Source: a virus
Taxonomy: Duplodnaviria > Heunggongvirae > Uroviricota > Caudoviricetes
Length of the DNA: 55,123 nt
Direction: 5' to 3' (one strand)
Virus record (IMG/VR): IMGVR_UViG_3300029305_003293
Coordinates: 118,161-173,283 of that record
Part shown: positions 1 to 27,730 of the stretch, piece by piece
Layout: every line of letters begins with the position of its first letter
Position numbering within the stretch: position 1 is the stretch's first letter
Program-made: the position numbers and the translations under genes
The notes under the pieces: generated by a model
Databases searched by the model: none
Told to the model about the DNA's origin: nothing
The model's input: only the letters and a program-made list of their open reading frames with translations

Positions 1-47
1 TCGCCACAAACACTGTCAAATGAGGCTTCGGGTCACTCATTTGAAAA

Positions 48-123
<76 letters not shown>

Positions 124-240
124 ATATGATGCGTGAGTTAGTCTTATCCTCACGACTAGAATTTCGTAGCAACTTAGGCTACCCGTCCTTCGGCGGTAAT
201 TGGTGCGCCATCGGGGACTCGAACCCCGGACACCGTGATT

Positions 241-711
241 TTTTAGTCATTCGGTGAAAATATCTTCCAACTTATAGTCATTTGCGAACATAATATTTTT
301 TACCTGTCCATTTCGGGTAGGCTTAATTCGCAAACGCTGATTACGAGAACCACACTTTTCAACAGGAATAACATAACATTGCCCTGCATAATAAGTTGCG
401 AAATAATCAATTTCTTCTTTTGAATAAGAATGATTTATTGTTCGCTGTGTATTCGTGTGGCTACTACTCGTAGCAAATTCAATGTATTCATCATCTCCAC
501 CAAGATGGCAAGTCTTTACTTGAATCTTATAAAGATGCCCCTTAATATCAACAATAAAATCATATCGAGAATCTGCAACTAATGGTTGGCTAACTTGATA
601 GCCCTTTGAAAGAAAACTTTCAGCGACTTGAAGTTCTGTTATCTTACCTTGAAAATGCGTGTTTAACAACACTATCACATCCTTAGGGAAGATATTTTCT
701 CCTTCTGTCTA
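241..711 (-). mobile_element. 471-nt tRNA intron/insertion carrying an endonuclease ORF, with complementary ends
   Basis: Lies between the two tRNA halves. 13-bp inverted repeat at 256-268/687-699, plus TTTTTAG/CTAAAAA pairing at the junctions. Confidence 0.8.
247..678 (-). CDS. PD-(D/E)XK homing-type endonuclease (I-Ssp6803I-like)
   Basis: Motifs GKITE...GYQVSQP..DSRYDFIVD..G.LYKIQVK and DYFATYY...YVIP match this family as I recall it. Confidence 0.8.
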   Translation of the reverse strand: MIVLLNTHFQGKITELQVAESFLSKGYQVSQPLVADSRYDFIVDIKGHLYKIQVKTCHLGGDDEYIEFATSSSHTNTQRTINHSYSKEEIDYFATYYAGQCYVIPVEKCGSRNQRLRIKPTRNGQVKNIMFANDYKLEDIFTE

Positions 712-755
712 AAAAGTCACGTGCTCTACCACCTGAGCTAATGGCGCATAAGAAG

Positions 756-832
756 TGGTACACCGTCTGGGGTTCGAACCCAGGACCCACTGATTAAGAA
801 TCAGTTGCTCTACCAACTAAGCCAACGGTGCA
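756..832 (-). tRNA. tRNA-Lys(CTT)
   Basis: Cloverleaf; ACTGA-TT CTT AA-TCAGT; CCA. Confidence 0.93.
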
Positions 833-958
833 TAATTGACTTCTCGGTTTCCACCAATTGGTGAGGCTTGCCCGTAGCCGGTTTGGCATCCGTTCAGTCA
901 TTCGGATGTTTGAGGAGAGCCAGCGCTCTCGATGCGAGAGGTCCCGCAATAAAGTTAG

Positions 959-1044
959 TGGTGCCCCCGGCCGGACTCGAACCGGCACGCCCATAGGGCA
1001 ACAGATTTTAAGTCTGTGGCGTCTGCCTATTCCGCCACGAGGGC
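959..1044 (-). tRNA. tRNA-Leu(TAA)
   Basis: ACAGA-CT TAA AA-TCTGT; long variable arm; CCA. Confidence 0.95.
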
Positions 1045-1049
1045 ATATA

Positions 1050-1143
1050 CAAGACTCTGGTTCTTTCCACGGATTCGAACCGTGCTTAAGGAGTTGCACA
1101 AAAAACTTCTATTTAACCAATAATTGATTGCTGTTACAGAGTC
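1050..1143 (-). ncRNA. Atypical tRNA-like element (CAGCAAT type, copy A)
   Basis: GACTCTG/CAGAGTC closing stem followed by TTG; CAGCAAT after the 5' strand; perfect T-arm CACGG-TTCGAAT-CCGTG; no CCA. Confidence 0.5.
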
Positions 1144-1151
1144 CTTATCAA

Positions 1152-1192
1152 CCTTACATATATATTATATCAAATTTTTTTTAATTTTTCAA
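1152..1192 (-). promoter_or_regulatory. Repeated sigma-A-type promoter cassette (representative of about 14 copies)
   Basis: TTGAAA-N17-TATAAT followed by ATATATGTAAGG. Near-identical copies near 2706, 3214, 3588, 4245, 5502, 10079, 11833 and 13914; variants near 8023, 12443, 14297, 17782 and 30958. Confidence 0.85.
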
Positions 1193-1193
1193 A

Positions 1194-1436
1194 TTACCAT
1201 ACTTCTTTGCTGGAAAAACCAACATACTTTTCAATTTCGTCGTATACTTTCTCCATAAAGATAGTATATTCTTCATTAGCACGATCGGAAGCCTCGGGAG
1301 TCGCCAGATCTTCTCCTTCATAGCCATACGGCAGTGGAATGTCGAAAGCTTCCGCGAGATCGAAGACATCAAAATCTCCATTTTCAATCGAAGCATAAAC
1401 CGCACGCGCGATCATTCGCTTAACCTTTTCGTTCAT
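1194..1436 (-). CDS. Small acidic hypothetical protein
   Basis: 80-aa ORF with AAGGAG RBS; D/E-rich. Confidence 0.7.
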   Translation of the reverse strand: MNEKVKRMIARAVYASIENGDFDVFDLAEAFDIPLPYGYEGEDLATPEASDRANEEYTIFMEKVYDEIEKYVGFSSKEVW

Positions 1437-1458
1437 ATTTGTCTCCTTTTGATTTAAA

Positions 1459-1549
1459 TGGCGGGGTAGGTAGGATTTGAACCCACGGAGGGCTATTAAC
1501 CCTCAATAGTTTTCAAGACTATCGTCATAAGCCACTCGACCACTACCCC
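1459..1549 (-). tRNA. tRNA-Ser(TGA)
   Basis: ATAGT-CT TGA AA-ACTAT; long variable arm; G73; CCA. Confidence 0.95.
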
Positions 1550-1587
1550 ATATAATCTGTGGGCCCGTAGGTTACCACAGTAAGAAC

Positions 1588-1675
1588 TGGCGGAGCCGGT
1601 GAGGTTCGAACTCACGCACCATTACTGGCCTAGCGGTTTAGCAAACCGCCCCCTTTACCACTTGGGTACAGCTCC
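1588..1675 (-). tRNA. tRNA-Ser(GCT)
   Basis: GCGGT-TT GCT AA-ACCGC; long variable arm; G73; CCA. Confidence 0.95.
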
Positions 1676-1677
1676 AC

Positions 1678-2126
1678 ATGTTGGCGCTCTTTTAAGGCGA
1701 GCTACCAATACTCCCCCACAGCATCACCGCAGTTGTTACTTTTTGTCGACACTACCGCAACCAGGTAGTAGGCTTTCGCGCCCATCTCCACTTTTTTCTC
1801 TTGACGAAAGTTAAAGTGTAACGCACGGATAAGAGATATCTTTAAGCATTGACCCAGCTAAGTGAGGATCTATCAGGCAATATCTTGCGGGCCATACCCC
1901 TTTTATTCAGCCGATATGGTAGCCTAGTCACTTTATCGCCGACAAGCGGATATTCCATTTTGCCGCGCCAAATATCAAGCGCCTGCTAAGCTCTCGTGCT
2001 TAGACCCAACGCATATTCTATCTTTTTTCACGCCGAATATATAGCGCTAAGCGGGAATTAATTGCCCTCACGCCAGAGGCGACCGTTTATAAGACCCCGG
2101 TTCATTGGTCTCTCTTACTGGGTCTA
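1678..2126 (-). ncRNA. Large structured ncRNA, ROOL-like
   Basis: About 450 nt with no ORF inside the tRNA array. The 3' part (GATGGGCGCGAAAG..CCTGGTTG..GGTAG..GACAAAAAG..AGCTCG..AAAAGAGCG) resembles ROOL RNA as I recall it. Boundaries are approximate. Confidence 0.6.
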
Positions 2127-2202
2127 CTACAAGCCAAGAAGGATTCGAACCCTCATTTTCCCATTACAGGTGGGACGATCTCACCTATTGAACTACTGGC
2201 CA
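2127..2202 (-). tRNA. Degenerate tRNA-Thr(TGT)
   Basis: TCCCA-CC TGT AA-TGGGA arm and a good T-arm; weak acceptor stem, C33, no CCA. Confidence 0.6.
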
Positions 2203-2214
2203 TTTTCAACCCTA

Positions 2215-2290
2215 TGGTGCCTCCGGTAGGAATCGAACCTACGACTTACGGGATATGAGTCCGTTGCTCTACCGACTGAGCTACAGAGGC
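2215..2290 (-). tRNA. tRNA-Met(CAT), probably elongator
   Basis: Cloverleaf; loop CT CAT AT; CCA. Confidence 0.85.
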
Positions 2291-2297
2291 ATAAAAA

Positions 2298-2372
2298 CAA
2301 GGCGGCTTAGAAAAAACTACTTTTAATCCCACATTAAATGTTTTTAATAAATAGAATTGCTGAGTCCGCCTT
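2298..2372 (-). ncRNA. CAGCAAT-type element, copy B
   Basis: AAGGCGG/CCGCCTT closing stem ending TTG; CAGCAAT 3 nt after the 5' strand; AT-rich internal hairpins. Confidence 0.4.
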
Positions 2373-2405
2373 TAAGTAAGAGGTGTTGCGTTTTGAAAAA
2401 GCTTT

Positions 2406-2480
2406 TGGTAGCCCTACCGGGAGTCGAACCCGGGACTTCAGCTTGAAGGGCTGACGGCTTGACCGCTTGCCTATAGGGCC
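2406..2480 (-). tRNA. tRNA-Glu(TTC)
   Basis: TCAGC-CC TTC AA-GCTGA (C33 instead of U33); CCA. Confidence 0.88.
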
Positions 2481-2621
2481 ATGGGAGCATTTACTTTGCT
2501 TTCTTATATACCGCTTTCCACTAAGCCACATATCGCCGTGCTTCGCACGCCGCCGGTGATAGTTTAACACTCCTAAAATCCATGTTAGCGGTTTTCACCT
2601 TTAAGGGCGGTGAAGCGCCCT

Positions 2622-2696
2622 TGGCGCCCTGTGTAGGACTCGAACCTACAACCTAACGGTTAACAGCCGTTTGCTCCACCATTGAGCTAACAGGGC
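2622..2696 (-). tRNA. tRNA-Asn(GTT)
   Basis: AACGG-CT GTT AA-CCGTT; CCA. Confidence 0.95.
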
Positions 2697-2991
2697 ATTT
2701 CTTAACCTTACATTATTATTATATCAAAATTTTTGATATTTTTCAAATGGAAGGTTAATGAATCAACATCTTTTTATAGGCTTAGTCTCGCCACCCGAGC
2801 AGCTTGTGCTAACATCTACCGTGCTTAGAGCAACCGATGCCACTTCTACTTCAGGGTATACGCCCATTATTTTTTGCTACGCTAAATCCCGGGCCAGGCA
2901 AAGTAGACTTTCTTTTAGGTCGCGGCCAACGACCCCGGTCTTACATCAATTATTTAGCCTCGCTGTTGGATGGCGGCAAACCTACGAGGAT

Positions 2992-3066
2992 TGGTGGCGC
3001 CAGTAGGACTCGAACCTAACATTCTCTGCTTGAGAGGCAGACCTCCTACCTTTAGAGGATGGCGTC
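2992..3066 (-). tRNA. tRNA-Glu(CTC)
   Basis: TCTGC-CT CTC AA-GCAGA; CCA. Confidence 0.92.
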
Positions 3067-3268
3067 ATATAGTGCCGAGACCGTTGCTCGGCGCGGTAGT
3101 TAATAAGTAATTTGTGGGGCGCGCTTATTACTACACATCGCGCAGACGGCTCATTCACAACTGCCGACCCATCGGGGCTTTTAGGAAATTTTCATTTCCT
3201 AAGGTCTTTCCTTACCTTCTATATATATTATATCAAATTTTTTTGAATTTTTCAAATTGCCGATTTGT

Positions 3269-3424
3269 TTACCAGTTACCCCATGCTCCCAAATCGACAG
3301 AATTTTGAACGAAGTTATTGAACTCTTCGGTCTGGAGGGCTTCACATTCATCAGGATCTACACCGTGTTCGTAACAATCCTCATACCAAGGACAATTAGT
3401 GCAGCGCTCATCGCAACGAACCAT
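3269..3424 (-). CDS. 51-aa Cys/acidic mini-protein (not in the ORF track)
   Basis: AAGGAGG RBS then MVRCDERCTNCPWYEDCYEHGVDPDECEALQTEEF... Confidence 0.65.
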   Translation of the reverse strand: MVRCDERCTNCPWYEDCYEHGVDPDECEALQTEEFNNFVQNSVDLGAWGNW

Positions 3425-3445
3425 AATGCTTCCTCCTTTTGTCAA

Positions 3446-3565
3446 TTAGTCTTCCAGGTCACAAAGGGCTTCGCCTTCCCAGAGCATCATATGCCCATCG
3501 GGAATATCATAGAACTCCTCACAAGTAATATCACACACAAAGTCATCGAGAAACAATACATCCAT
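3446..3565 (-). CDS. 39-aa acidic mini-protein (not in the ORF track)
   Basis: Promoter cassette and GGGAGG RBS; MDVLFLDDFVCDITCEEFYDIPDG... Confidence 0.6.
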   Translation of the reverse strand: MDVLFLDDFVCDITCEEFYDIPDGHMMLWEGEALCDLED

Positions 3566-3696
3566 CAGGAATTCCTCCCTTTCTCAACCTTACATATATA
3601 TTATATCATAAAATTTTGAATTTTTCAATTTGCCGTTCGGTGGTATTAGTTCTTCAAATTACCTCTACATCGGCAAATAGGGAGGGCCCAAAAATT

Positions 3697-3918
3697 TTAC
3701 TCTTCGTAAGTGATAGGATCATGAAAAAATTCGCGCAACTTATCTTGCTGTTCCTTGGAAAGACAATACCAATCGGATAGGATGTCATCCAGCAACATAC
3801 AGACATCATCCATACATACTTCGACATCTGCTTCAGGGCTACCAAGTCTATCAATAGATAGATGTAATTCCGAAGAAGGACTATGATATAATGGCGAGAA
3901 ACGAATATACTTTTTCAT
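3697..3918 (-). CDS. Hypothetical protein
   Basis: 73-aa ORF abutting the upstream gene. Confidence 0.6.
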   Translation of the reverse strand: MKKYIRFSPLYHSPSSELHLSIDRLGSPEADVEVCMDDVCMLLDDILSDWYCLSKEQQDKLREFFHDPITYEE

Positions 3919-3919
3919 A

Positions 3920-4213
3920 TTAAATTACCTCGCCAAAATCCCTAACTTCACCAGTCAGTTTATCAAAGTGAAGATCACTACGACATTCCTCAGAAAGAGA
4001 AATCCACTCAAGAGAAATGATAGGACACTTAACAGTATCGCCGCAAGCCTCAGCAACTTCTTCGAGATAATCTTCGATCTCGATTACGCTGCCGCACTCA
4101 AGGCAAATAATCTCTTCGCCATAGGCAATACCGCAGATATAATCTTCATTTTCGATATCATAGAAGGCAACCTGAGCGGGACGCTCGAAATAACGCTGAG
4201 TCATATCTAACAC
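3920..4213 (-). CDS. Acidic hypothetical protein with a CxxC motif
   Basis: 97 aa; ICLECG; downstream of a promoter cassette. Confidence 0.7.
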   Translation of the reverse strand: MLDMTQRYFERPAQVAFYDIENEDYICGIAYGEEIICLECGSVIEIEDYLEEVAEACGDTVKCPIISLEWISLSEECRSDLHFDKLTGEVRDFGEVI

Positions 4214-4295
4214 CTCTTGATATAATCTTTAAGGTCTTTCTCAACCTTACATATATATTATATCAAATTTTTTTTAATTTTTCAAATAAGAGGTC

Positions 4296-4535
4296 TTAGA
4301 ACTTGACAAAGGAATCTTGAAGAGACTTAATACCTTCTTTGTATTCTACCAGACAACAATTGTCAATAAAACTATAAATACTCAAAGAAATAATATTATT
4401 CTCTCCATAGTGATCAGTAAGAATAGCTACTGCTTCCTTATAACTTTCCGCTCCACCAAGCAAACCATGAGCTACCTTAGTTTTTGTGGGGTCGAAAGCA
4501 AAATCAATATAAACCTTCACCTTATATTTAAACAT
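4296..4535 (-). CDS. Hypothetical protein
   Basis: 79 aa; AAGGAG RBS. Confidence 0.65.
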   Translation of the reverse strand: MFKYKVKVYIDFAFDPTKTKVAHGLLGGAESYKEAVAILTDHYGENNIISLSIYSFIDNCCLVEYKEGIKSLQDSFVKF

Positions 4536-4563
4536 ACATTAGTCTCCTTTTGCTTAAATAAGT

Positions 4564-4640
4564 TGGTGGGCCCTCTGGGACTCGAACCCAGGATCAACCG
4601 GTTATGAGCCGGGTGCTGTAACCAACTCAGCTAAAGGCCC
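4564..4640 (-). tRNA. tRNA-Ile2/Met(CAT)
   Basis: CCGG-CT CAT AA-CCGG; body resembles lysidine-type Ile2 tRNA; CCA. Confidence 0.85.
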
Positions 4641-4643
4641 AAA

Positions 4644-4782
4644 TGGTGACGAGGGTAGGATTCGAACCTACACTTTAGGGCTTTTCCAGAGCGTTTCAAA
4701 TTTGAGTAGCATTGCTGATTAGTTTATTTCTAAACTACCTTAATTTTACTTTTTCCTGCTTCTGCCGTTGAGCGACCTCGTC
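4644..4782 (-). tRNA. tRNA with a 62-nt insertion in the anticodon stem (anticodon GGA after removal)
   Basis: Perfect acceptor stem GACGAGG/CCTCGTC plus ACCA and T-arm GTAGG/CCTAC. Deleting 4693-4754 restores a 5-bp stem GGGCT/AGCCC around CT GGA AA. Confidence 0.65.
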
Positions 4783-4794
4783 ATAAAAGGAGCA

Positions 4795-5172
4795 TTATAG
4801 CTCCATAAAATATTCCCAAGCAGTATTAATAAACCACTTAATAATGGCATTTAAGACACCAATGCCAGTAAAAACCTGAAGAAGAAACACAAGCCAATTA
4901 GGGAAAAATATCCCAAAAAAGCCTCCAACAAATGCGATTGGAACTGCCATACAAATGGCAAAAAGGACTAACAAGAAACAAGCCGAAGCAACAAGGTCTA
5001 AACGACGAGAAAATTTTCTCAATCGAGTATCTGTTTGTTTAATCTTATCATCTTTGACATCCTCTTCAATCATAATATGCTGAGGAGGAAGCATATGTTT
5101 TGGCGTTTTGGTCTTGAAATGCCTACCATTTGAATCAATTGTGTAGTAAATTTCTTTGCGCTTTTTACCCAT
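4795..5172 (-). CDS. Membrane protein
   Basis: Two hydrophobic segments in the C-terminal half. Confidence 0.7.
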   Translation of the reverse strand: MGKKRKEIYYTIDSNGRHFKTKTPKHMLPPQHIMIEEDVKDDKIKQTDTRLRKFSRRLDLVASACFLLVLFAICMAVPIAFVGGFFGIFFPNWLVFLLQVFTGIGVLNAIIKWFINTAWEYFMEL

Positions 5173-26843: not shown

Positions 26844-27296
26844 TCAAGCCCCAATTTTCGAAAATAGCACCCAATCTTCATCATACCATGCGGGGGCAGG
26901 TTCGTGCGGGTTGATCTTCTTTTCATAGCCTTCGATCTCGTAGGTGTCAAAGATGTATTGCTTCATCTGATAACCATAGCGAGAGAGCCACGCACGATCC
27001 CACCAGTGGGCACGACGAGCGAAGCAATAATCGCTCCACTCCATACAGAGCCACAAGCCCTCTTCGTCGATGTCGCAGACCTTGCCGAAATAGCGGTCGG
27101 CCATCTTTTTGGCTTTTGCTTCGCTCCACTTCATGCTATCGTAGTGGTGATTCTGTAGCATGTCAATGAGAGCGAAGATTACGCCGATGGGATAAGCCCA
27201 CCAATAAATGTTGTAACCGCAGAAGGGGATTGTCCTCTTCCAGATGGGGTTGGTAGGGGTCGTGCGCTTCTTAATCTGCTTTGCCAGTTTTGCCAT
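26844..27296 (-). CDS. Trp-rich hypothetical protein with a hydrophobic segment
   Basis: 150 aa; AAGGAGG RBS. Confidence 0.7.
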   Translation of the reverse strand: MAKLAKQIKKRTTPTNPIWKRTIPFCGYNIYWWAYPIGVIFALIDMLQNHHYDSMKWSEAKAKKMADRYFGKVCDIDEEGLWLCMEWSDYCFARRAHWWDRAWLSRYGYQMKQYIFDTYEIEGYEKKINPHEPAPAWYDEDWVLFSKIGA

Positions 27297-27417
27297 TGAG
27301 GTGTCCTCCTTAGCTTTGGGCTTAAGCCCCTTTCGATGGTCTTATTATAGCACAGGTCGCCAGGAATTGCAATACCTTTTTAGAAAAAAAATAAAAAAAG
27401 TTTTTTTCAGAAAACTG

Positions 27418-27449
27418 TTGACATCCAAGCTGATCTGTGGTATTATAAT
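27418..27449 (+). promoter_or_regulatory. Promoter driving a non-coding transcript
   Basis: TTGACA-N17-TATTAT (TATAAT overlapping); divergent from a minus-strand promoter. Confidence 0.75.
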
Positions 27450-27451
27450 AT

Positions 27452-27730
27452 CACAGCAAGGGGATGTGGCCTTGCTACTGGGCACGAAGGGTCGACACTT
27501 CGCGATGACTCAGATACCAAAAACGCATAGCCTCTGCCGTAGGGCGTCGGTGAGATTCCGACCGCGCAAGCGAAGACGAGAGCCTGAGGCAGAGGAACCC
27601 CATCCCTCCGCAAGCCGTGGGTTCAAGTCCCACCCTCCTCTGGTTAGATCAGGTAGGCGAGTTGGTTAAGCCGTGCGGGTTTAGGGATGGGGCTTTTCTG
27701 TGTCTGGTGGAGCGATCCGCCAGGCTTTTT
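27452..27730 (+). ncRNA. Unclassified structured RNA with two T-loop-like hairpins
   Basis: Own promoter and terminator; no RBS-led ORF; stems CCTCTGCC/GGCAGAGG and CCCCATCCCT/AGGGATGGGG; hairpins GTCGG-TGAGATT-CCGAC and GTGGG-TTCAAGT-CCCAC. Confidence 0.65.

Follow-up and report, generated by a model that had tools for sequence, protein, structure and literature searches.

What becomes of a tRNA whose gene is split, directly behind the anticodon, by a homing endonuclease gene that brings no recognizable ribozyme with it? The question is raised by a stretch of 55,123 nucleotides (nt; hereafter the window), the last 55 kilobases (kb) of the 173-kb IMG/VR virus record IMGVR_UViG_3300029305_003293, which is 97% complete and stems from a gut phage with 36 tRNA genes in one array along the record; the phage origin that had been read from the letters alone is borne out. 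On the minus strand of the window, the phage's tRNA-Lys(UUU) gene is interrupted directly after the anticodon by a 471-nt insert (the cassette) that consists largely of an endonuclease gene. The interruption itself is confirmed, and both the mobility of the insert and its lack of a ribozyme are well supported.

The interrupted tRNA gene

The default run of ARAGORN misses the split gene, and its intron mode detects it in the wrong register under the label Phe(AAA). In-silico deletion of positions 711-241 joins the two halves into a tRNA that is identical at 76/76 positions to the uninterrupted tRNA-Lys(UUU) of the viral contig L011, whose DNA is unrelated to that of the source phage outside this gene. 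Uninterrupted alleles were thus sought and found, since the same 30-nt empty junction is also present in five further large phage contigs. The initial annotation had given the gene the span 201-748; its end at 201 holds, and 748 lies one base outside the tRNA, whose 5' exon starts at 747 (Table 1). That annotation had also regarded the splice register as ambiguous, a view that had to be abandoned: the first base of the insert, U, differs from A37, its last base, A, differs from U36, and these boundary bases, together with the identical empty allele and the position 36/37 kept throughout the class described below, fix the register. No other tRNA-Lys(UUU) gene is present in the phage genome.

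Table 1. Parts of the split tRNA-Lys(UUU) gene and of its insert (window coordinates)
Feature	Position	Strand	Content	Basis
5' exon of tRNA-Lys(UUU), 36 nt	712..747	minus	tRNA positions 1-36: acceptor strand, D arm, anticodon-stem 5' strand CGUGA, loop C32 U33 U34 U35 U36	ARAGORN intron mode; identical to uninterrupted L011 gene
Insert, 471 nt	241..711	minus	Ribozyme-less homing-endonuclease cassette at tRNA position 36/37	Bounds from identical empty allele
Rod, 5' strand	687..721	minus	Anticodon-stem bases 27-31, loop bases 32-36, insert bases 1-25	Minimum free energy (MFE) and cofold
GGAG motif	699-702	minus	Shine-Dalgarno-like, ahead of the start codon	
Open reading frame (ORF), 432 nt	247..678	minus	143 amino acids plus stop codon, GTG start; PF11645 (PDDEXK_5, I-Ssp6803I-like)	Pfam
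Rod, 3' strand	234..268	minus	Last 28 insert bases, A37 A38, stem bases 39-43	MFE and cofold
3' exon of tRNA-Lys(UUU), 40 nt	201..240	minus	A37 A38, UCACG, variable loop, T arm, acceptor strand, A73, encoded CCA	ARAGORN intron mode; match to uninterrupted L011 gene

Both junctions are spanned by error-free contigs (236-405 and 401-741) that stem from two independent runs of faecal metagenomes, so the insert is real DNA and no artefact of assembly. Among the DNA contigs, at a coverage of about 3x, none with this phage's own flanks skips the insert, and loose contig ends at position 240 trace to tRNA-Lys genes of other organisms. No RNA data set was listed as carrying window positions 150-850, and the one RNA run compared, X23, contained only short pieces of 90-95% likeness, which come from other organisms and include no informative joint.

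The endonuclease

The ORF, free of in-frame stops under genetic code 11, matches PF11645 at E 2.1e-30 (106 bits against a cut-off of 26.1) and is also a member of phrog_5018. A profile built from 12 homologues matches the structure of I-Ssp6803I (PDB 2OST) at E 1e-15, and the D of RYD, the Q-x-K and other motif residues are invariant in the 12. Assignment to the I-Ssp6803I family of PD-(D/E)XK endonucleases is therefore well supported, and a homing function is predicted from the sequence; the kinship with I-Ssp6803I proposed in the initial annotation stands, as does its layout of the insert, in which the reading frame leaves 33 nt upstream and 6 nt downstream, 39 non-coding nt altogether. Since no room for a promoter or terminator is visible, the cassette is presumably transcribed with the tRNA array.

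Absence of known splicing signals

A permissive Rfam scan of window positions 1-5000 (E<=10) returned the neighbouring tRNAs, yet neither a group I or group II intron nor a small ribozyme. This negative is meaningful because the same Intron_gpI model detects group I cores in related phage tRNA introns, namely in L013 (54 bits), in L096 (27 bits) and twice in L099, once in an intron without an ORF (73 bits) and once inside an intron that bears a PF11645 gene (33 bits). These group I introns measure 600-700 nt, occupy position 35/36 and end in G. The insert of the window ends in CUAAAA, and no register that fits the empty allele would give it a terminal G. With neither space nor signal for one, a group I core is absent from the insert, a conclusion that is well supported and agrees with the initial annotation. 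The bulge-helix-bulge that the annotation had likewise failed to see is also missing, as both junctions lie inside one continuous helix, 3 base pairs (bp) apart. Inspection of the insert ends by eye showed no core motifs of a hammerhead.

An RNA rod that includes the anticodon

The two ends of the insert and the exon bases next to them fold into a long rod that continues the anticodon stem, as the initial annotation had described it, down to its coding part: the 3' strand contains the stop codon of the ORF and the 7 sense codons before it. From the tRNA outwards, U33-A37 is followed by 6 bp (UUU+UAG with CUA+AAA), an A.A mismatch, CA/UG, a GAA/GAA loop, GG/CC, a second A.A mismatch and 13 perfect bp; the last three insert bases, AAA, thus pair with the anticodon UUU, and the GGAG motif ahead of the start codon is buried in the helix. 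Cofolding of the two strands gives -33.6 kcal/mol, compared with -15.3 +/- 2.0 kcal/mol for 500 shuffles of the 3' arm, none of which came as low (0/500; z = -9.0). Within the subfamily that occupies tRNA-Lys(UUU), an A-U pair is replaced by C-G in L034 and the helix is preserved.

The same architecture recurs in other phages. A profile scan of IMG/VR yielded 160 relatives of the ORF, of which the best 80 loci were examined; in 31 of these the ORF lies inside a tRNA and, with four group I cases set aside, 29 distinct ribozyme-less inserts remained, chosen by their detectability with ARAGORN. Their last three bases pair with the anticodon in 28/29 cases. Counted over positions 34-36 of the tRNA and then insert bases 1-7, the paired fraction among the 29 inserts is 1.0, 1.0, 0.97, 0.97, 0.86, 0.86, 0.72, 0.86, 0.86 and 0.66, against 0.4-0.6 when the partner strand is taken from other inserts. 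Beyond insert base 7, two conserved mismatches are followed by renewed pairing. In most subfamilies a CAAAC motif on the 5' side and a non-coding GCAUUG directly after the stop codon on the 3' side stand at a fixed distance from the junctions and enclose A.A and C.C mismatches; the Lys(UUU) subfamily, in which the insert of the window groups with L030, L033, L034, L031 and L029, has a variant of its own. Across the cassette family, pairing has been kept through compensating changes, so that the rod is under selection as a helix of RNA in which exon bases take part.

Other origins of the rod were considered and set aside. A DNA-level source of the anticodon pairing, by target-site duplication or from a hairpin-capped end, fails by reasoning to predict the observed sequence. 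Mimicry of the endonuclease's whole DNA target was rejected as well, the match being limited to the exon-side half, where it arises by construction.

A widespread class of inserts

All 29 inserts (29/29) sit at position 36/37, in tRNAs with 11 different anticodons (UUU, CUU, UGG, GUU, UGU, GAU, CAU, GCU, UUG, UGC and UUC). This breadth makes the link to PrrC, which the initial annotation had drawn from the tRNA-Lys(UUU) target, unspecific. Each insert is filled by its ORF up to a remainder of at most 37 nt at the 5' end and of 2-23 nt at the 3' end, provided that TAG counts as a sense codon in three of them. The encoded proteins are 27-69% identical to that of the window and have 136-213 amino acids, or about 250-267 where TAG is read through; all are intact, in a search whose method favours intact ORFs. 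No ORF-less derivative of a cassette was seen among the short ARAGORN 'introns' of the examined loci, most of which are two adjacent tRNAs bridged by the program. With an unresolved base, the protein tree gives no clear single origin of the life inside tRNAs. The class is widespread, and no published description of it was found in the literature.

Another member resides in the source genome itself, on the minus strand at genome positions 112351-112877, 5.3 kb before the start of the window, where a 450-nt insert again occupies position 36/37 and encodes a PF11645 paralogue with 38% identity to the ORF of the window. ARAGORN labels this gene Gln(UUG); C1-G72, A73, G37 and the loop UUUGG+GA identify it as tRNA-Pro(UGG). 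The ends of its insert form a rod too (z = -4.2). The genome contains no other tRNA-Pro, and all 20 amino acids are covered if both split genes are counted. Rfam models found no match in this split tRNA (E<=0.1) or in 16 related inserts (E<=1), and no exact match to the empty allele of this tRNA-Pro was present in viral contigs.

The three recoded cases are L045, L059 and L066, with inserts in tRNA-Pro and tRNA-Ala, whose endonuclease ORFs are open only with TAG as sense; the cassettes therefore also live in TAG-recoded phages. Neither of the two cassette ORFs of the source genome has an in-frame TAG. A complete phage of 190 kb (L124-L125; G001:C1:111500-151500) carries four tRNA genes with inserts of 453-472 nt within 11 kb, two of them tRNA-Lys(UUU), and has no intact tRNA-Lys(UUU) there.

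Mobility and distribution

Precise presence/absence polymorphism at the target site was found twice, in the empty allele of L011 and in a pair of Enterococcus phages. In phage EFP01, a 463-nt insert lies exactly between U36 and A37 of tRNA-Asn(GUU); in iF6 the site is empty, and a base-by-base comparison of the junction with EFP01 shows neither duplication nor loss. A further 28 Schiekvirus records cover only the flanks of the EFP01 insert, in two pieces, mostly at 95-99% identity and in three cases at 90-95%. Related inserts are also more alike than the exons around them (82-84% versus 76-78% for Gln and 78% versus 64% for Ile), which argues that the elements move between diverged tRNA alleles. 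Taken from these sequence comparisons, movement of the cassette by DNA homing into position 36/37 of tRNA-Lys(UUU) is a well-supported prediction.

Split tRNAs of this class were seen solely in tRNA arrays of phage type. In the genomes of GTDB, split cases occur only on small tRNA-array contigs of gut metagenome-assembled genomes, and the chromosomal homologues, from Eremiobacterota and Actinomycetes, are free-standing beside tRNA-Thr. A pattern-based scan of bacterial genomes found no chromosomal split tRNA among 13 homologues, which is weak evidence of absence because only these 13 were recovered. Many PF11645 relatives stand free next to tRNAs. On five chromosomal contigs of Eremiobacterota (L116-L118, L120 and L122), for instance, a free-standing PF11645 homologue immediately precedes tRNA-Thr(GGU), in a location shared by five genomes; on L117 its neighbour on the upstream side is tRNA-Gly, and tRNA-Tyr lies farther in that direction.

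The fate of the interrupted tRNA

A slight and tentative preference goes to the reading in which the tRNA is not restored, and in which rod and tRNA body form a scaffold for the processing, stability or translation control of the endonuclease mRNA. The cassette would be transcribed within the tRNA array, RNase P and RNase Z would cut the tRNA-shaped scaffold holding the endonuclease mRNA out of the array transcript, and the rod, as a part of the cassette, would close, stabilize or regulate that mRNA or mark it for processing; the insertion would cost the phage a dispensable tRNA. Evidence for this reading comes from relatives in which an intact ORF and the rod are kept and no tRNA can result. 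In the closest relative among the best 80 of the 160 loci, L029 (69% amino acid identity), the T loop is shortened and the stems contain mismatches; L057 has A33 and likewise mismatched stems. The 5' part of the tRNA is lost in L037, only the anticodon arm of a tRNA-Asp remains in L047, between two other tRNAs, and in L055 the tRNA body is absent and positions 32:38 and 33:37 have become Watson-Crick pairs (G-C and C-G). Decay or truncation of the tRNA halves beside an intact endonuclease gene, which the initial annotation had named, jointly with a lack of spliced tRNA, as the sign of simple insertional inactivation, occurs in part of the family. Truly free-standing homologues have no such rods; since rod and ORF persist where no viable tRNA exists, while these homologues lack the rod, the rod probably serves the cassette itself. 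The intactness of other exons may only reflect their young age, because the inserts move horizontally.

Several observations weigh against this reading. After in-silico removal of the insert, 29/29 genes become normal tRNAs with natural anticodons and with stems as good as those of 371 uninterrupted neighbours, in a set that had been picked for its detectability with ARAGORN. Neither this genome nor the 40-kb stretches examined from 7 other phage genomes contain an intact twin for the split anticodon, and in these sequences the split gene is sometimes the sole gene for its amino acid. Within the whole rod, conservation is strictest in the pairs that adjoin the junctions, which fits a cutting site better than a mere stabilizing helix. 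Homing endonuclease genes located in a gene's functional core are normally maintained only as part of splicing elements, and pairing between intron and anticodon is a hallmark of the protein-spliced tRNA introns of archaea and eukaryotes. The phage moreover encodes an RNA ligase of 488 amino acids (G000:C1:90700-92170; L026:1366-2832, minus strand), a DraRnl-like member of phrog_968 (E 7e-70) with the Pfam RNA_ligase domain and a PHA02142 OB domain, a family with a further match, among the control genomes, in Deinococcus radiodurans; by its sequence, it is of the type predicted to join 3'-OH to 5'-phosphate ends.

Such a ligase would suit a protein-dependent tRNA intron, a possible though rather unlikely solution. 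The rod would then be a splicing signal: cuts after U36 and before A37, one in each strand, would flank the three anticodon pairs with a 3-nt 3' stagger, and a ligase would seal the loop into a working tRNA-Lys. The cuts might be made by a host nuclease for double-stranded RNA, by an unrecognized phage enzyme or by the encoded PD-(D/E)XK protein, and the joint by the DraRnl-like enzyme (3'-OH and 5'-phosphate) or by a host RtcB (cyclic phosphate and 5'-OH). The idea draws its strength from the pairing of insert and anticodon in 28/29 cases over 11 anticodons, from the conservation that is strictest at the junctions, from the CAAAC/GCAUUG pair at its fixed distance in most subfamilies, from exons that are intact, natural and unique in their genomes, and from ORFs that are all intact, as if the protein were needed, within the bias of the search towards intact ORFs. 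However, cleavage of a continuous RNA helix with a 3-nt stagger is not known for any nuclease of bacteria or phages, and RNase III, with a stagger of 2 nt, would leave an 8-nt loop. Of the splicing enzymes that the initial annotation had suggested looking for, an RNA ligase was found, whereas RtcB and EndA were not found in the phage genome; neither was RNase III, and RtcB may be encoded by the host. A model of T4 Rnl1 matched neither the phage nor any control genome and is uninformative. The phrog_968 ligase is present in 7/10 other carrier records, including 6/7 of those at least 90% complete, and is missing in one complete carrier; it is equally present in 5/5 phages without the Lys insert, whose other tRNAs were unchecked for inserts of the class, so it is not specific to carriers and its co-occurrence is uninformative. 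The persistence of rod and ORF where no tRNA can form also counts against protein splicing, as does the failure to see the class in chromosomal tRNA genes among the 13 homologues recovered. Most of the large tRNA-rich phages sampled have a DraRnl-like ligase, whether or not their tRNAs are split.

A cryptic ribozyme, either a small one built from the rod with its conserved internal loops or a core like that of group I introns hidden in the ORF, would remove the insert with or without the help of a ligase, and is very improbable. The conserved unpaired A.A and C.C of the rod do suggest a specific RNA motif, and Rfam contains only ribozymes already described; yet none of the Rfam scans described above returned a ribozyme, though the model finds group I cores in the tRNA introns of related phages. 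The terminal G and the hammerhead motifs are missing, the perfect pairing around both junctions disfavours in-line attack, and a common core of about 200 nt would find no space in cassette ORFs that diverge so far in sequence and vary in length. Excision by RNase P and RNase Z followed by ligation, with insert ends that mimic an acceptor stem, is more improbable still. The 7-bp helix of insert bases 1-7 and the two unpaired bases behind it bear a loose likeness to an acceptor stem with positions 8-9, and the products would carry the 3'-OH and 5'-phosphate ends that the phage ligase requires; but the insert of the window has no mimic of a T arm or T loop, the mismatch is symmetric (2x2), unlike that of a tRNA, and the 3' junction lies 3 nt past the helix instead of 1 nt. 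The 5' 'leader' would also be fully paired with the 3' 'trailer', and leader-trailer pairing inhibits RNase P. Least credible of all is removal at the DNA level, in which the cassette would be excised during infection and the intact tRNA gene transcribed. The insert ends are inverted repeats, and the fold of I-Ssp6803I resembles that of Holliday-junction resolvases (PMC3384342); however, the phage DNA contigs carry the insert, none with its own flanks skips it at the coverage given above, and no recombinase-type chemistry is known for the PF11645 family.

Comparison with known systems

The nearest described relative is the group I intron in the tRNA-fMet gene of Synechocystis PCC 6803, which is 655 nt long and encodes I-Ssp6803I in an ORF of 150 amino acids (PMC1995217). 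Both elements bring a PF11645 endonuclease into the anticodon loop of a tRNA and presumably spread by homing, and phage relatives that combine a true group I core with a PF11645 ORF exist (L096 and L099). Unlike the Synechocystis intron, the insert of the window has only its 39 non-coding nt, neither a catalytic core nor a terminal G, and ends that form a rod with the anticodon. Self-splicing is implausible. The insert also differs from the phage group I examples in lying at 36/37, where theirs lie at 35/36.

With the protein-spliced introns of archaea and eukaryotes, which depend on EndA/Sen and on RtcB or Trl1, the insert shares its place in the anticodon loop, the pairing with the anticodon, the lack of a ribozyme and a 3' junction that is nearer to the tRNA body than the 5' junction. 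The hallmark of the bulge-helix-bulge is two 3-nt bulges separated by a 4-bp helix at the junctions. The rod, by contrast, is a continuous helix without bulges and with junctions 3 bp apart, at 36/37 instead of 37/38; the insert carries a homing endonuclease gene, and EndA and RtcB were not found in the phage. The bulge-helix-bulge splicing pathway is not known from bacteria.

In a case of genes in pieces, a homing endonuclease gene reportedly divides a phage gene. T4 SegB is, going by the way PMC2330249 is cited in PMC8421152, a free-standing homing endonuclease gene in a phage tRNA cluster. Like this type, the cassette is a selfish gene among phage tRNA genes that would target tRNA DNA; unlike it, the cassette occupies a fixed position within the tRNA and comes with a conserved rod of which exon bases are a part.

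Further parallels lie among RNAs grafted as an extended helix onto a stable RNA. RNase III cuts the intervening sequences out of bacterial 23S rRNA, and the pieces are not religated; in engineered 'tRNA scaffolds', a foreign RNA is sheltered by being grafted onto the anticodon stem. The likeness would extend to processing by host RNases, with no ligation needed for the insert's own purposes. Unlike a fragmented 23S rRNA, a tRNA cut in the anticodon loop would lose its function, because it cannot decode.

Significance

Homing endonuclease genes are thought to survive within genes only if a self-splicing intron or an intein neutralizes them. Here, a large, old and diverse family of cassettes sits without a ribozyme at the most critical spot of a tRNA, with a conserved helix that uses the anticodon itself. 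If proteins were to splice these inserts, phages would possess a protein-based removal of tRNA introns that is not known in the bacterial world, and a third, mobile kind of tRNA intron would stand beside group I and bulge-helix-bulge introns. If the tRNA is not restored, as is slightly preferred here, a selfish gene would exploit the tRNA body as a scaffold that helps to process and stabilize its own mRNA, and would sacrifice the tRNA. The cultured pair EFP01 and iF6 makes the fate of the tRNA directly testable. On the practical side, the tRNA sets of phages are under-counted or mis-called, because standard tRNA finders miss split genes, as the labels Phe(AAA) and Gln(UUG) illustrate.

Other RNAs in the tRNA regions

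Shorter insertions of other kinds were encountered in the same searches. In L092 (433-586) and, at the same coordinates, in L093, a tRNA-Thr(UGU) gene carries after the anticodon a 78-nt insert without an ORF, which belongs to a different class and contains a perfect look-alike of a T arm (stem and UUCGAAU loop). Inserts of 72-117 nt in tRNA-Thr(UGU)-like and Lys-like genes of L008 (9989-10179), L010 (1817-2006, minus strand) and L048 (251-399) share the conserved stretch AGUUUAA(A/G)AGUAAAA; they have no ORF and are too short for group I introns.

In the window, ARAGORN in intron mode reports a 'tRNA-Ala(AGC)' with a 308-nt intron at 27242-27642 (genome 145402-145802, plus strand), which overlaps a stretch earlier noted as structured RNA and is probably no real tRNA. 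The tRNA array of the source genome gave sub-threshold Rfam matches to drum RNA (36 bits, cut-off 43) and to a YrlA Y-RNA-like RNA (32 bits, cut-off 69) at L002:115-211 and 451-553, minus strand. ROOL RNA (RF03087) is present in the tRNA regions of two related large phages, at L008:3148-3722 (323 bits) and L013:4991-5605 (297 bits).

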